Positions 39,010-63,401 of a DNA stretch of 64,000 nucleotides are shown one piece after another. Origin of the DNA: Escherichia phage StefiGeyer_Bas88. The DNA lies in the sequence record PQ850628.1; one strand, written 5' to 3'. The notes under the pieces were generated by a model that saw nothing but the letters and a program-made list of their open reading frames with translations, was not told the origin of the DNA and made no database searches. Every line of letters begins with the position of its first letter. The first letter of the stretch is position 1. The position numbers and the translations under genes are program-made.

Positions 39010-40257
39010 TTACAGAGTTACTGCTACTTCACTACCTTCAACAGTTACAGACTCTAACTTACGAGGGTTGTGGACTTGTTGCGGATGAACCGGAACGTTC
39101 CAGCCACTGCGGTAGAAGTTACGACCATCGCAGAACAGAATGACATTGGCAGACATTGCATTAGGTTGCAGGTTGTTATGAACATGACGAATATCTGCAA
39201 TCCAGTAACCACGAGACAACACATAACCAGTAGGTGCATTACGGATTGTCTGAGTATTCATCTGACCTTCCAGTTGCATTTCTTCAGGAACTACATCCAC
39301 TGAATCAACCGGCTGTGCGACTTGGCCTTCCAGTGCGAAGTTTTCATCATCAGCACTTTCACTGTCAGCAACCAATTCACCATCTCCATCTTCAATTGGA
39401 GCTTCAACAGGTGTTGCATAAACCACTTTATACTGAGGAGTATAGAGAGGGTTTTGAGCTTTAACAAACTCAAGGATATTGTGACGGTAGATATCCAGAG
39501 TTGTGCCAGTTAGGCCCGGTGCTGTATTAACTTCCAGTACCCATGCTTCTTGACCTTTGGTGATGATATCAACTGCACCGAAATCTAGACCCATTGATTC
39601 AACAGCTTTCACTGCGTTGATCAGAGAGGCATCGTTCGGAACGTCTGTGAAGGAACTTGAGTAAACCCAACCAGTGTGATGGTTACGAACATCTTCACGA
39701 TAGTTAGGGTCTTCACGATAACCGTTACGACGAATCTTTTTCTGAACATAGGTGATAGCACCTTTGAACACATGGACACGCCATTCACGACGTGGGCCTA
39801 GAATACCTTTGGTGTACAGTTCAGCTTGACCAACTGAATCACGAGGCTCTACAACAATGATACCTGAACCAGAGTGACCAGTCAGTTCATGACGTTCATA
39901 CACAATGTTGCCAGAGTTTGACCACTCCTGAGCAGTTGATTGAACATCTGTATACTCAACAGTTTTAACACCTGCTTGGTCCATTACACTGAAAGCGCGA
40001 CGTTTGTTCGCTGCCATATGTAAGGCTGCGGTACGGTTAAGAACAGTTGCAGAACCAAAGAAGGATTCAGGATAGCGACGGTTCCCGTAGTTCACAACCA
40101 CATCACCCTCACGAGAACGCCAGCGACTGTTCTCTGAAAGAAGACCCATTACGTTAGCGTTGATACGTTCATCACGGATAGTATCGTTAATGGCAGTTAC
40201 CAGAGCGTTAACAGAATCAGAAGGGCCATACGGAAGAACACGGATACGAGTAGTCAT
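39010..40257 (-). CDS. ATP-grasp ligase, RimK-like
   Basis: GLDFGAVDIITKGQEAWVLEVNTAPGL matches the RimK-type ATP-grasp C-terminal motif; acidic insert EDGDGELVADSESADDENF. Confidence 0.6.
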   Translation of the reverse strand: MTTRIRVLPYGPSDSVNALVTAINDTIRDERINANVMGLLSENSRWRSREGDVVVNYGNRRYPESFFGSATVLNRTAALHMAANKRRAFSVMDQAGVKTVEYTDVQSTAQEWSNSGNIVYERHELTGHSGSGIIVVEPRDSVGQAELYTKGILGPRREWRVHVFKGAITYVQKKIRRNGYREDPNYREDVRNHHTGWVYSSSFTDVPNDASLINAVKAVESMGLDFGAVDIITKGQEAWVLEVNTAPGLTGTTLDIYRHNILEFVKAQNPLYTPQYKVVYATPVEAPIEDGDGELVADSESADDENFALEGQVAQPVDSVDVVPEEMQLEGQMNTQTIRNAPTGYVLSRGYWIADIRHVHNNLQPNAMSANVILFCDGRNFYRSGWNVPVHPQQVHNPRKLESVTVEGSEVAVTL

Positions 40258-59674: not shown

Positions 59675-60001
59675 TTACGGATTGGTGCAAGTGCCGTTAC
59701 CTGATGCTATTTCGTTCATCGACTCATCGAACAACGTCATGCTAGACCGCATCATGTGATCAATAGTAATTTGCTTGCCTGTAGTTTCATTGACTAGCAT
59801 TGCATGCTTGCCATCAACGACACGATGATCATAATCATTCAGGTCAATCAATACTACCTTGCTAGACTTTTTGCCAGTGTCGTAATTGTCCATTAGATAG
59901 GTGCATTGCAGACCATCAAGGCTAGCCTCATTGAATACGGCAGCATGTGACACGGAAGAAACAGCGAACAAGGCAGCACATACAGCTAATTTAATTTTCA
60001 T
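59675..60001 (-). CDS. secreted (periplasmic) protein
   Basis: Signal peptide MKIKLAVCAALFAVSSVSHA. Confidence 0.45.
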   Translation of the reverse strand: MKIKLAVCAALFAVSSVSHAAVFNEASLDGLQCTYLMDNYDTGKKSSKVVLIDLNDYDHRVVDGKHAMLVNETTGKQITIDHMMRSSMTLFDESMNEIASGNGTCTNP

Positions 60002-60106
60002 AATCCAACCCTTACAAGGAACGTGCAACATAAGAAATCATGTCATAGGTAAATAACATGATACAGAAAGCAATCAGGCAATGCAAGAAATATTTATGAA
60101 TCACCA

Positions 60107-60355
60107 TTAACGATCCTCGACGGTTAACAGTTCTTCCAGTGATAGACCGGATTTAACCAGCAAATCACGATATTCGTTAGCATCCATCGGATCAAGGCCG
60201 GACAACCGGGCAATAGTCATGCGTGCATGTGCTGAAGACAAGGAAGCCAAAGCACGGATAGGAATCAGTACAAGCCCATATTTACCGCTGATAACCAAAT
60301 CACCATGCTGGATGCACATATGGGAGTTTATTACGGTTGCAAATGATTCGTTCAC
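60107..60355 (-). CDS. hypothetical small protein
   Basis: 82-aa ORF; start overlaps upstream stop. Confidence 0.3.
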   Translation of the reverse strand: MNESFATVINSHMCIQHGDLVISGKYGLVLIPIRALASLSSAHARMTIARLSGLDPMDANEYRDLLVKSGLSLEELLTVEDR

Positions 60356-61221
60356 TGGATAGCCTCACAATTAGCAAAGTTAATAAAGGTTGTATAAACT
60401 GCTACACCGTCATTGTAAGCAGTGGTAGCGAGTACAGTTTCACTCACATCGCCATAGCTAACGAGATTAGTTACAAACTGTAATTTCTCTTTCTCAATCT
60501 TCTGATATAGAGAATAAGTAACCATGTCATGATCACTATCAGCACGATTTAAATTAATAACCGACTGAATGCCTGATTTCTCACCTAACGGGGTAAGAGT
60601 GACACGCACATCTTTTACGGTTACAGAGTTAAAATGCACCTTCCAGAATGAATCATTACCATCACTGCCAACGTCACGGCAGACCATATCAGGAGCATTC
60701 TTAAACGTGCTAACAAAAGATTGCAGACCAGTAGAAAGAGAGTCTTTTGCCTGAACATTGGTAGCGATAGCACTAACACCGATAGCTGCAACCAGTGCAT
60801 AACTTGCAAGGTTGACAGACTTCATAATCTTACTTGCAATAGAAGGCTTGCTATCTTTCTTCTTCTTGTTCTGAATAGCTTCAACCATAGCAGACAAGCG
60901 GGATAATACTGCGTTAACATCGCGGCAAGATTCAGGCCAATCATTCTGAGTCCAACTATCTAAATTAGCCTGAATGTAACAGTTGATAGCATCTTGCATA
61001 TCTGTAAAACCATTCTCTTTCATTGACTGCTCATCTTCACACTGTAAGGCGTTCGCAGCGGAATCTATGATAAGACAAGCCAGAATGACAGAGTTTTTAA
61101 AGCTGGTACGAGCTTGCTGATTATTCATCCATTGAGAAGGCACACCAACGGAAAGACCTAACGGAGAAAGTACATCATTTGCTTGATTCAAGTATTTAAT
61201 TGCTAACTTTGACATTTTCAT
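60352..61221 (-). CDS. membrane-associated protein with central TM helix
   Basis: 289 aa; central hydrophobic helix SVNLASYALVAAIGVSAIATNV. Confidence 0.4.
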   Translation of the reverse strand: MKMSKLAIKYLNQANDVLSPLGLSVGVPSQWMNNQQARTSFKNSVILACLIIDSAANALQCEDEQSMKENGFTDMQDAINCYIQANLDSWTQNDWPESCRDVNAVLSRLSAMVEAIQNKKKKDSKPSIASKIMKSVNLASYALVAAIGVSAIATNVQAKDSLSTGLQSFVSTFKNAPDMVCRDVGSDGNDSFWKVHFNSVTVKDVRVTLTPLGEKSGIQSVINLNRADSDHDMVTYSLYQKIEKEKLQFVTNLVSYGDVSETVLATTAYNDGVAVYTTFINFANCEAIQ

Positions 61222-61399
61222 TAATCCTTTCGGTTGATGTGAACTACAAACTACAATCGCAACTATATATTAAAGGAAAAACTTGTCAACCACTTATTTT
61301 CAAACTATTTCATAACTCACTGAATTTAAAAGGAATTTAATTTACTAAACTTTCTTACTCAGAGGTACAGCTTACTGACAGAATGTTACTTTATAACAC

Positions 61400-61510
61400 T
61401 AATAGAACGGGTAGCAGACCAACGGGATAGATAGATGGGTAAGACGTGCCGCATAGGTTAGCCAATGGGTAAGAAGCCTAACGAGGAAGGGGAAACGGGT
61501 AGGGTATAAT
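61400..61510. repeat. iteron-like array I, (A/C)(A/T)GGGTAG
   Basis: ACGGGTAG, GATGGGTAAG, AATGGGTAAG, ACGGGTAGGG within about 100 bp. Confidence 0.55.
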
Positions 61511-61559
61511 GTAAGTTAGTTACAGATGACAGACCAGACCATGCGGGAGTTAATTACCA

Positions 61560-61850
61560 GTCAAATAATTTACTCAAACAACTAAAAGAAAAAGAATAAA
61601 GACACGCTGAAAAAGAAACAGACCTAAAAGATAAAGATTAACATAATCATTAAAAGAAACTATTAACCAGTCTAATGATACATACATCAATAATCCACTC
61701 ATGAAACATTAACATAAGTTATCACTATTAAACTTGGGGGATTGTGTGAATGCTTATAGTTGCATGGTGTTACTAGTAGTTATCATAGGTTATCATTAGC
61801 CTGATCATAGTCACTATTATAGCCCCTTAACAGAGTCTAGCCTTTCATCC
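61560..61850. repeat. A-tract-rich region with TTATCA boxes
   Basis: AAAAGAAAAAG...AAAAAGAAACAG...AAAAGATAAAG runs, then GTTATCACTATT, AGTTATCATAGG, GGTTATCATTAG. Confidence 0.35.
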
Positions 61851-61869
61851 CTTCTCAATATGAGTAAGA

Positions 61870-61980
61870 GAAATACGGGTGGGAAATCACTGGTTAGATA
61901 TACATGGGTAGATAATCAATGTCTAATATTAATGGGTAGTGTATTTATGGGTAGGCATGCCACTGATAGCAGGTAGGGCA
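61870..61980. repeat. iteron-like array II
   Basis: ACGGGTGGG, CATGGGTAGA, AATGGGTAGT, TATGGGTAGG, AGGTAGGG. Confidence 0.55.
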
Positions 61981-62178
61981 AGGCTTAGAGCTTAAAGGCG
62001 ATGTGATTCTGTACAGGCGATTGCATCGGTAATAACCCTTTTTTAAATGAGGACTCCCCCTTTTACCAAAACGCGCTCGGAGGGGCTAGGTCCACTCGGT
62101 CAAATCAGAATTTTAAACCCTTATATATAACTATATGCCCCAACGTTAGTTGTGGATTTAAGAGTGAGGAACAACTTT

Positions 62179-62343
62179 ATGTGGAAGATTAAGTTACTAG
62201 TTAAGCAATTCAAATGTAGTCATGAGTATTATCCAATCCGGATATCAAGAGGTGATGAACGATTACACGCTTATTACAAGAGTACATGGAGATGTGCAGA
62301 CTGTGGTAAGGTGAGGAATAGTAAATGGGTGGATAGGCCTTAA
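62179..62343 (+). CDS. small Cys/His-containing protein
   Basis: GAGGA RBS before ATG at 62179; CSHE ... CADCGK motif. Confidence 0.35.
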   Translation: MWKIKLLVKQFKCSHEYYPIRISRGDERLHAYYKSTWRCADCGKVRNSKWVDRP

Positions 62344-62460
62344 TGGGTTTGTATGGGGTGGCCTTAATGTGACATGGCCTTTATGGAGTCCCCCTTACAT
62401 CAGCGTACATGGGTTCATACATGGGTGGGCCTTTAGATGAATACGCCTTTATGGGTTAGC
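62320..62460. repeat. iteron-like array III, GGCCTT(T)A(A)TGGG units
   Basis: At least seven (A/T)ATGGGT(G/T/A) copies spaced 10-30 bp, several preceded by GGCCTT. Confidence 0.55.
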
Positions 62461-62488: not shown

Positions 62489-62755
62489 ATGATTCTAGAC
62501 TTTTTATCAGAGTTACTTCCTTTCTTCCGCACTGAGACATGTGCATTCAAAGTTGAAGAAGATGGGGACTTTGAAGTAATAACTTGTTTGGGTAGATTAG
62601 TAGACCTAGATGACGATGAAGATTTTGATGCTACGATGGACATTAGTTCATTGGGCTGGTTGTACATGAGATGCTTTGTGAGTTACAAGGCTGAGACGTT
62701 TAAAGATTATCGTTATAGTGATAACGTAAATACTGAAGGAGAGAATGATGAATAA
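62489..62755 (+). CDS. small acidic protein
   Basis: GAGGAG RBS; Asp/Glu-rich 88 aa. Confidence 0.4.
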   Translation: MILDFLSELLPFFRTETCAFKVEEDGDFEVITCLGRLVDLDDDEDFDATMDISSLGWLYMRCFVSYKAETFKDYRYSDNVNTEGENDE

Positions 62756-63401
62756 TATGACAGGAACTACTACACTGAATGCAATCTATGAGAACATGGG
62801 ATGTAAAGGCGAGGTTGTTTACAATGGTAATCTCCGTCCTTTATCAGAGGACATTCTCTATCTGAATCGTGTTCATGAAACTACTGGAGGTAAATCCCAA
62901 GTTGAGATGGTAAAACAACTGGCTCATGGTTCTGTGTATGGTTATGCTCCTTCAACCCGTGAATTGTGGGAAGGTTTGATTCCTAGTACAGAAGCGAAAG
63001 ATGTGAAAGATTATTTCACTGTAGCAAAAGAAGTTAAACGCAAGTGTCCATCCAATCTAGAAGTTGTTCCGTATGTAGCTGACAAACATGCACACCTACC
63101 GGATTATGCCCGTGAGATGATTGAGATGATAGAAGAAGCCGAGTATGAAGCTCTGAATAATTATTTAAATTCAAAAGATCAATGGTCACGTAATGTAGTA
63201 ATTGATGAAGAAGGTAATGAAGTAGTTACGTGGGTACATGCTAGTGAACAAGCTCTGGACCCCGAGCTTGAAGAATACAAAAAATTTTTGGCGTCCTCTT
63301 CTTTTGATGTAGAGAATGACAAATCTGTTCCAGTGACTTGGGAAGGTGAAACTGTAGCTCTCCAGACTTTGTTCAACCTGCACGTAGGTAATGTAGATTA
63401 A
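62745..63401 (+). CDS. hypothetical protein
   Basis: 218-aa ORF with RBS; followed by a terminator. Confidence 0.4.
   Translation: MMNNMTGTTTLNAIYENMGCKGEVVYNGNLRPLSEDILYLNRVHETTGGKSQVEMVKQLAHGSVYGYAPSTRELWEGLIPSTEAKDVKDYFTVAKEVKRKCPSNLEVVPYVADKHAHLPDYAREMIEMIEEAEYEALNNYLNSKDQWSRNVVIDEEGNEVVTWVHASEQALDPELEEYKKFLASSSFDVENDKSVPVTWEGETVALQTLFNLHVGNVD

Follow-up and report, generated by a model that had tools for sequence, protein, structure and literature searches.

One-directional box arrays at the putative genome-end junction of a phiEco32-like coliphage

The stretch of DNA analysed here (64,000 nucleotides of Escherichia phage StefiGeyer_Bas88, sequence record PQ850628.1; hereafter the window) holds a 1.27-kb non-coding stretch between a leftward gene (60352-61221) and rightward genes starting at 62179 and 62489, and within it a short box, ATGGGT in its commonest form, is repeated in three clusters on one strand. 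A DNA search with this region matched 97 phage records, all of them Escherichia or Shigella podophages of the phiEco32 group (Gordonclarkvirinae: Kuravirus, Suseptimavirus), the closest at 90% identity, and many of the matching records open or close within the region. Leftward early genes lie on one side of it and rightward terminase and portal genes on the other. From its sequence we read the region as the point where the two ends of a linear phiEco32-like (Kuravirus/Suseptimavirus-like) coliphage genome meet; right-end sequences, a single collapsed copy of the direct terminal repeat (about 61839-62087) and left-end sequences would follow one another in this order. Genome termini or a packaging site had been one of two suggestions of the initial annotation, and as to location this suggestion was borne out by a homologue of the phiEco32 repeat, by the record ends of relatives and by a terminase gene pair (small, large) 1.4 kb downstream.

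Boxes, terminal repeat and genome ends

ATGGGT is the top-enriched 6-mer of the region in an unbiased k-mer comparison, with 10 copies against 0.40 expected (Poisson p 2e-11) and no copy on the - strand. The wider core A[CT]GGG[GT] occurs 14 times on the + strand between 61380 and 62470 and never on the - strand, whereas 200 first-order Markov simulations gave at most 6 (mean 3.2) per 1091 bp. The window as a whole has 53 such cores on the + strand and 42 on the - strand, and the region, 1.7% of its length, accounts for 14 of the former and none of the latter; elsewhere in the window no site has three or more matches within 300 bp. The three same-strand clusters of the initial annotation are confirmed by these counts. 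Its figure of at least 15 copies of (A/C)(A/T)TGGGT(A/G)G was too high, as the strict pattern is present 4 times and, with one mismatch, 9 times; about 20 copies are reached only if degenerate boxes (ACGGGA, ATAGGT, ACTGGT, GCAGGT) are counted. A position matrix finds 13 boxes of the form A(T/C)GGGT(A/G/T)(A/G)G, and the GCCTT-led units seen earlier in cluster 3 are indeed there (Table 1). Tandem Repeats Finder reports a single 28-bp period of 1.9 copies, in cluster 2, and the arrays are dispersed boxes, unlike clean tandem repeats.

Table 1. Coordinates of the features at and around the junction (positions of the window).
Feature	Position	Strand	Remarks
Early sigma-70 promoter TTGACA-16-TATAGT	61262..61289	-	11 of 12 consensus matches; kept in relatives
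Cluster 1	61407..61503	+	
Cluster 1, strong boxes	61407 (ACGGGTAG), 61435 and 61465 (ATGGGTAA), 61495 (ACGGGTAG)	+	spacing 28/30/30 bp
Cluster 1, weaker boxes	61422, 61453, 61487	+	interspersed
Cluster 1, matrix matches	61433, 61463, 61493	+	spacing exactly 30 bp
Candidate gp36-type (phage sigma) promoter TATAATGTA	61505..61513	+	reads rightward to the terminal repeat
AT-rich spacer with TTATCA boxes	61531..61838		32% GC against 42% in the window
Direct terminal repeat by homology	61839..62087	+	249 bp, one collapsed copy; left border AGCCTTTC, right border ...GGAGGGGCT
Cluster 2	61860..61977	+	left half of the terminal repeat
Cluster 2, strong boxes	61875 (ACGGGTGG); 61904, 61932, 61947 (ATGGGTAG)	+	
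Cluster 2, weaker boxes	61860, 61889, 61969	+	
Cluster 2, matrix matches	61858, 61873, 61902, 61930, 61945	+	
Invariant core CCCTTTTTTAAATGAGGACTCCCCCTTTT	62036..62064	+	23-51 bp before the right border
Conserved block outside the right border, AGGTCCACTCGGTCAAATCAGAATTTTAAACCCTTATATATA	62088..62129	+	kept across repeat types
54-aa ORF, CxH...CxxC, zinc-ribbon-like	62179..62343	+	phiEco32 gp1 homolog; phrog_7696
Cluster 3	62325..62459	+	GCCTT(T/A)ATGGGT-type units
Cluster 3, boxes	62325, 62343, 62353, 62409, 62421, 62451	+	
Cluster 3, matrix matches	62323, 62341, 62407, 62419, 62449	+	
Cluster 3, GCCTT[TA]A	62337, 62361, 62377, 62429, 62445	+	5 copies
Putative small terminase subunit, 155 aa	63467..63934	+	synteny with TerL and portal; profile matches
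aa, amino acids; ORF, open reading frame.

Counted from the start of the terminal repeat, the boxes of cluster 1 lie at -432 to -344, those of cluster 2 at +36, +65, +93 and +108, and those of cluster 3 at +486 to +612. Cluster 1 is found 340-430 bp to the left of the repeat, with ~335 bp of AT-rich spacer between it and the border. Cluster 3 lies 240-370 bp to the right, past ~235 bp that comprise a conserved block and a small ORF, and cluster 2 extends from 21 to 139 bp rightward of the left border.

The repeat itself was placed by homology. The phiEco32 record has an exact 193-bp repeat at both of its ends, the borders of which (left AGCCTTTC..., right ...GGCT/AGG, the stroke marking the border) align with positions 61839 and 62087 of the window, where the repeat is present once. 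Among the records that open or close within the region (SU7, HC-25922, NC-B, UKE3, E20-1 and EK010), SU7, the ends of which were set with PhageTerm, and HC-25922 start at the equivalent of 61839, and NC-B ends at 62087. When the starts of metagenome contigs were used as a stand-in for physical ends, no clustering was seen. The published descriptions of the group (phiEco32, SU10, Paul, YF01) give direct terminal repeats of 192-193 bp with blunt ends and variation in T-runs, and report a highly conserved stretch at nucleotides ~130-170 of the repeat. The window counterpart of that stretch is 62036-62064, which we refer to as the invariant core. The 275-bp repeat annotated in phage PAS59 is unrelated to these and resembles an assembly overlap.

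Conservation in related phages

In all 10 GenBank relatives and in 8 metagenomic junctions, 12-15 boxes are found on the + strand and 0 on the - strand, in the same three clusters. Three types can be told apart by repeat and box variant: type A, with a 193-bp repeat and ACGGGGA boxes (phiEco32, SR02, Bas91 and ShigP1); type B, with 249 bp by homology and ATGGGTA boxes (the window, Bas87, TH43, MLP3, BS3, TH42, SU7 and NC-B); and type C, with ACGGGG boxes (Bas89). The box variant differs among the types and the number, phasing and position of the boxes are maintained. Strong boxes follow one another at 27-31 bp, or at half this distance, in every type; clusters 1 and 2 both open with a ACGGGTAG box in types A and B, and in phiEco32, the ends of which were mapped experimentally, boxes stand at +36, +65, +79 and +92 of the repeat. 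In a comparison of seven type-B phages the core columns of the boxes were invariant throughout (24/24 in cluster 1 and again in cluster 2), compared with 68/82 of the other columns in cluster 1 (Fisher p 0.036) and 60/82 in cluster 2 (p 0.003). The boxes are a selected, one-directional and phased set at fixed positions relative to mapped genome ends.

Conservation is uneven along the region. Cluster 1 is the best conserved non-coding block, with 88% invariant columns, and the second half of cluster 3 is 83% conserved, whereas its first half (62344-62385) varies in copy number among relatives and has 24% invariant columns. TH42 carries an extra unit of ~31 bp, CATGGGTAGATTCGCATTACTAGATAATGCT, near the equivalent of window position ~61903, which adds one box to cluster 2 and indicates that the arrays change by whole units. 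The core at 62036-62064 is identical in types A, B and C and in the lineages that we label L027 and L029, and TTTAAATGAGGACTCCCCC is identical in 10/10 relatives and three further lineages. Distant lineages, the small terminase of which is 67-74% identical, keep the invariant core and a few boxes, with TATAATGTA again placed after the boxes. A related core, CCCACTTCCCC(C)TTTT, is found in phages 7-11 and A24, and a scan of viral contigs for the core returned only phiEco32 and one other contig. Phages of other genera have short repeats of their own, TGGATAG and GATGTTATA in 7-11 and ATTGAG and TAGTTATGCA in A24.

One metagenomic contig, L045 (ENA ERZ925764 k127_391, 1-253), combines two types. 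It begins 4 nt ahead of the repeat border; the left 150 bp of its repeat, with the boxes, are type-C-like (86.6% to Bas89), and from the invariant core rightward it is 99.7% identical to a type-B contig. Its sample contains another strain, and the contig is possibly an assembly chimera, so that a natural recombination at the core was not used as evidence.

A possible role in packaging, and competing explanations

Dunn and Studier reportedly described, in 1983, arrays of short repeats, SRL and SRR, that flank the 160-bp terminal repetition of T7 (and of T3). To our knowledge no role has been established for them, and an open-literature search on these arrays gave nothing useful. We checked the T7 sequence and found CCTAAAG at 17, 41 and 60 inside the 160-bp repeat and, to the right of it, eight exact copies at 175-332 with 13-bp phasing; on the left side of the right-hand repeat, exact copies at 39671 and 39700 and five copies with one mismatch together span 39606-39734. 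The strand counts are 11 + and 0 - at the left end and 5 + and 0 - at the right end. At the left end of SP6 (NC_004831), one strand has 12 copies of CTTAGT at 225-569 and the other has 0; the array lies just past the terminal repeat, with 12-bp phasing, and one copy lies inside the repeat. The SP6 array is an SRL-like array in a third phage group.

T7 and the phage of the window are both podophages with short direct terminal repeats and concatemer packaging, and both have a short motif (6-8 bp) on one strand in three groups, to the left of the repeat, in its left part and to its right. The arrays of T7 adjoin the repeat and are phased by 12-13 bp, whereas the outer clusters of the window stand 240-430 bp off and the phasing is ~29 bp. 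SP6 shares the one-strand array beside a terminal repeat (12 vs 0) and likewise differs in motif and in its 12-bp phasing. As the T7 and window motifs (CCTAAAG and AYGGGK) are unrelated and the T7 group is absent from the matches of the DNA search, the likeness is architectural only; moreover, the T7 group encodes its own RNA polymerase, whereas the phiEco32 group employs the host polymerase with a phage sigma factor, and the proteins are unrelated. The window is a further, non-homologous example of a known, functionally unexplained architecture. A full-text literature search, which did not extend to the original phiEco32 papers, returned no paper that connects either Kuravirus or phiEco32 to iterons, to short repeats, to pac sites or to origins of replication. 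Little is understood of the way in which phages with short direct terminal repeats recognise their ends, cut them and duplicate them, and an equivalent array now appears in an unrelated podophage group, which transcribes its genome by another strategy, has an elongated head and carries a PaP3-like small terminase. The invariant cores, together with the fixed phasing and position relative to mapped ends, argue that arrays of this kind are under selection and general to genomes of this type, and the array offers precise targets for mutagenesis. The junction also explains the inconsistent opening positions and repeat annotations of deposited genomes in this therapeutically used phage group.

We tentatively favour, as a possible rather than a probable explanation, that the boxes act in cis, as sites to which a protein binds for the maturation of concatemers and their packaging. 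Repeated terminase-binding elements adjoin the cut sites of several phages: the R-sites (R1-R3) of lambda cosB, the hexamers of P1 pac (4 + 3 flanking the cut) and pacL/pacR of SPP1. Like these sites, and like PacB and PacC of T7, the window has short repeats beside its putative cut sites, on both sides, near the terminase genes; those sites are read by an oligomeric small terminase, whereas here binding is a proposal. Cluster 2 and the invariant core lie within ~150 bp of the putative cut sites when the borders are taken by homology. Unlike the lambda, P1 and SPP1 sites, the window has a larger spacing and larger outer distances, two cut sites 249 (or 193) bp apart and boxes without GATC, and no integration host factor (IHF) consensus was found near the region. 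The small terminase of T7 recognises PacB at the concatemer junction, and the PaP3-type small terminase, a nonamer with nine helix-turn-helix motifs, is a proposed reader of repetitive sub-sites.

We infer that a protein binds the boxes, and from there propose its identity and a part in packaging as follows. On the replicative concatemer an oligomeric DNA-binding protein would fill the boxes of cluster 2, which are phased by ~29 bp and lie 20-140 bp in from the left border; the likeliest binder would be the ring-shaped small terminase with its several helix-turn-helix motifs, possibly helped by an accessory protein. Cluster 2, once bound, would position the large terminase for the left-end cut, whereupon packaging would begin rightward, and the invariant core would mark the right-end cut. 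Clusters 1 and 3, in the same orientation and a few hundred bp outside the borders, could serve as auxiliary sites, either for looping and synapsis or as a signal of approach or termination, and might let both borders be processed and the repeat be duplicated.

Several observations weigh against this proposal. The small terminase is 90-91% identical between phages with ACGGGGA and with ATGGGTA boxes and does not co-vary with the box variant, and hence co-variation lends no support to the terminase as reader of the boxes; the small genes adjacent to the terminase are 41-69% identical across box types. The basic N-terminal motif of the small terminase is invariant even in genera with unrelated repeats. 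It may be that the small terminase reads the invariant core, another protein reading the boxes, or that it reads the boxes only degenerately. At 240-430 bp, clusters 1 and 3 are farther from the borders than typical terminase sub-sites, and the promoter-like element and AT-rich DNA right after cluster 1 fit an origin or a transcriptional role equally well. No role is assigned to the T7 and SP6 arrays themselves, so the analogy carries architecture and not mechanism. Finally, the repeats deposited for the window's type measure 53 bp (SU7, 61839-61891), 54 bp (UKE3) and 194 bp (NC-B, 61894-62087) rather than the 249 bp obtained by homology. These three repeats have a common breakpoint at 61891-61894, between two boxes (TCACT/GGT/TAGATA), which could be an additional specific cut or nick, or reflect alternative ends. 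A bolder version, which we consider quite unlikely, is that the boxes form a directional 'ruler' for an oligomeric phage protein that marks both repeat borders and governs repeat duplication, with 61891-61894 as a third programmed cut or nick. If this were true, the phiEco32 group would be a tractable second system for the 40-year-old question posed by the short repeats at T7-type ends.

The other suggestion of the initial annotation was a replication origin of the classic layout, with iterons, an AT-rich region and DnaA boxes. T7 origins consist of promoters followed by AT-rich DNA, and the secondary origins phiOL and phiOR adjoin the ends. Here a phage initiator would bind the four phased boxes of cluster 1, TATAATGTA would activate or prime replication and the AT-rich spacer would unwind, clusters 2 and 3 being additional or regulatory sites. 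The order of the elements, boxes at 28/30/30 bp followed by TATAATGTA and by 300 bp of the AT-rich DNA already noted in the initial annotation, suits such a role; in lambda ori, P1 oriR and iteron plasmids phased direct repeats also lie beside AT-rich DNA with a promoter nearby. TATAATGTA matches the core of gp36 promoters (consensus tAATGTAtA, taken from the literature) and directly follows the last cluster 1 box in three lineages, namely the window, Bas89 (~1098-1110) and L027 (~2288-2300); it is invariant in type B, and phiOR of T7 likewise reads toward the right end. In phiEco32, however, this element is deleted and the boxes are kept. The box core of 6-9 bp and the spacing of ~29 bp differ from the 17-22 bp and ~22 bp of iteron origins, and two of the three legs of the classic layout fail. 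No DnaA box (TTATCCACA, up to one mismatch) exists between 60500 and 63000: the three TTATCA boxes of the earlier description are present (61719, 61780 and 61790), but they have at least 3 mismatches to the DnaA box and are not conserved in relatives, and their reading as DnaA boxes is not supported. The phased A-tracts were not recovered either, since AA/TT periodicity at 9.5-11.5 bp in the spacer does not exceed that of shuffles. The AT-rich spacer is the least conserved part of the region (52% of columns invariant, with indels), apart from two conserved islands, ACGCTGAAAAAGAAA and CATCAATAATCCACTCATG. The absence of an IHF site also speaks against an origin, and the neighbouring ORFs have no match to a Rep or initiator family, such absence being weak evidence. 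The cumulative GC-skew minimum does fall in the region, as it would at an origin, but the sign of the skew tracks the coding strand, which switches at the same place, and the skew is uninformative alone and was discarded. The distant relative A24 has five perfect DnaA boxes at the equivalent position, in favour of an origin, which nevertheless leaves the boxes inside the terminal repeat, at fixed distances from a mapped end, unexplained. On balance an origin seems unlikely to us.

Transcriptional control would make the boxes operator or activator sites of a phage regulator acting on end-proximal promoters (61262-61289, TATAATGTA and those of the first rightward genes). Genes close to the ends belong to the early genes, cluster 1 is flanked by divergent promoter-like elements, and cluster 3 occupies the intergenic space before the ORF at 62489 and contains TTAATGTGA, near the gp36 consensus. 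We nonetheless hold this role to be distinctly unlikely: no recognisable promoter follows cluster 2, published phiEco32 promoter maps show none at the right end, and the boxes persist in lineages without the small end-proximal genes. Canonical gp36-type promoters (TAATGTATA) stand elsewhere in the window without upstream boxes, which rules out the boxes as an upstream element of gp36 promoters.

The leading end in infection offers another setting, in which a protein, either ejected from the virion or supplied by the host, would bind the boxes and hold, protect or pace the first-entering DNA. T5 has a repeat-rich injection-stop region, and in T7 the first ~850 bp enter before RNA polymerase pulls in the rest. 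The early promoter of the window is ~800-825 bp from the right border, with clusters 1 and 2 between promoter and end, and the T7 and SP6 arrays are also within the first few hundred bp. This resemblance of distance to T7 is possibly a coincidence and cluster 3 lies at the opposite end, and such a role appears very unlikely. Least likely of all, and highly improbable, is that the boxes have no function and arose as by-products when non-coding DNA at the ends underwent slippage during replication, duplication of units and gene conversion. Whole-unit changes in copy number, as in the extra unit of TH42 and the fluid first half of cluster 3, would be expected in that case, as would the concerted switch of the box variant in clusters 1 and 2, which gene conversion would produce. 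Against it, adjacent columns vary while the box cores stay invariant, architecture, orientation and phasing are kept though the flanks of the lineages fall to 70-78% identity or less, and analogous arrays with unrelated motifs exist in T7 and SP6.

Neighbouring genes and minor observations

The putative small terminase gene is separated from the region by three small genes, and in relatives the large terminase gene lies just past the equivalent of the window end. A profile of 27 homologs of the 155-aa protein matched the small terminases of NV1 (7joq, E 0.0027) and PaP3 (6w7t, E 0.11). Its AlphaFold2 model is weak (predicted local distance difference test score 65.7), and Foldseek gave no significant match, the PaP3 and NV1 terminases being only among the weak ones. 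In the YF01 paper the 155-aa protein was identified as small terminase by HHpred.

The 54-aa ORF begins 92 bp past the terminal repeat, and its 3' end holds the first box of cluster 3. It is found in 92 phage records, of Escherichia and Shigella phages only, and is absent from lineages L027-L029 and from 7-11 and A24. Neither this zinc-ribbon ORF nor p88 is likely to be a universal binder of the boxes, as clusters 1 and 2 keep their boxes in lineages that lack these genes. Two further proteins carry PHROG labels without Pfam support, 'ABC transporter' (218 aa, 62745-63401) and 'terminase' (118 aa, 59675-60031), the latter with a signal-peptide-like N-terminus; these labels, which have been propagated in several GenBank records, look unreliable.

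The sigma-70 promoter at 61262-61289 serves the leftward early gene 60352-61221 and forms the inner edge of the right-end control region. Upstream of it, the block at 61310-61365, TCATAACTCACTGAATTTAAAAGGAATTTAATTTACTAAAC, is conserved across repeat types, has a discernible counterpart even in 7-11 and A24 (ACTAACTCACTGATTTATAA...) and may act as an UP element or as another early promoter. The SU10 paper describes one sigma-70 promoter in front of the homologous last gene and also proposes sigma-70 promoters before coding sequences 1-3. At the other end, the block at 62088-62129 may be the promoter of the first rightward gene; a sigma-70 scan did not score it as sigma-70-like.

Rfam returned no RNA-family match to the region at E up to 1, and Chi-like sites (GCTGGTGG), from which the boxes differ at 3 positions, were ruled out by inspection. 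The DnaA boxes of A24, a Cronobacter phage (NC_070973), fall within ~190 bp, four on one strand and one on the other, at ~1283-1470 of the joined ends and 500-700 bp upstream of the A24 core, where the window is AT-rich only. In A24 and the Salmonella phage 7-11, both Grimontviridae relatives, 2.6-2.8 kb in which no gene is annotated separate the small terminase gene from the last early gene, and this stretch contains, besides the short-repeat families of these phages, tandem copies of (T)TCAGTGTAA, which overlaps the GTAAtg element in the late-promoter consensus published for 7-11.

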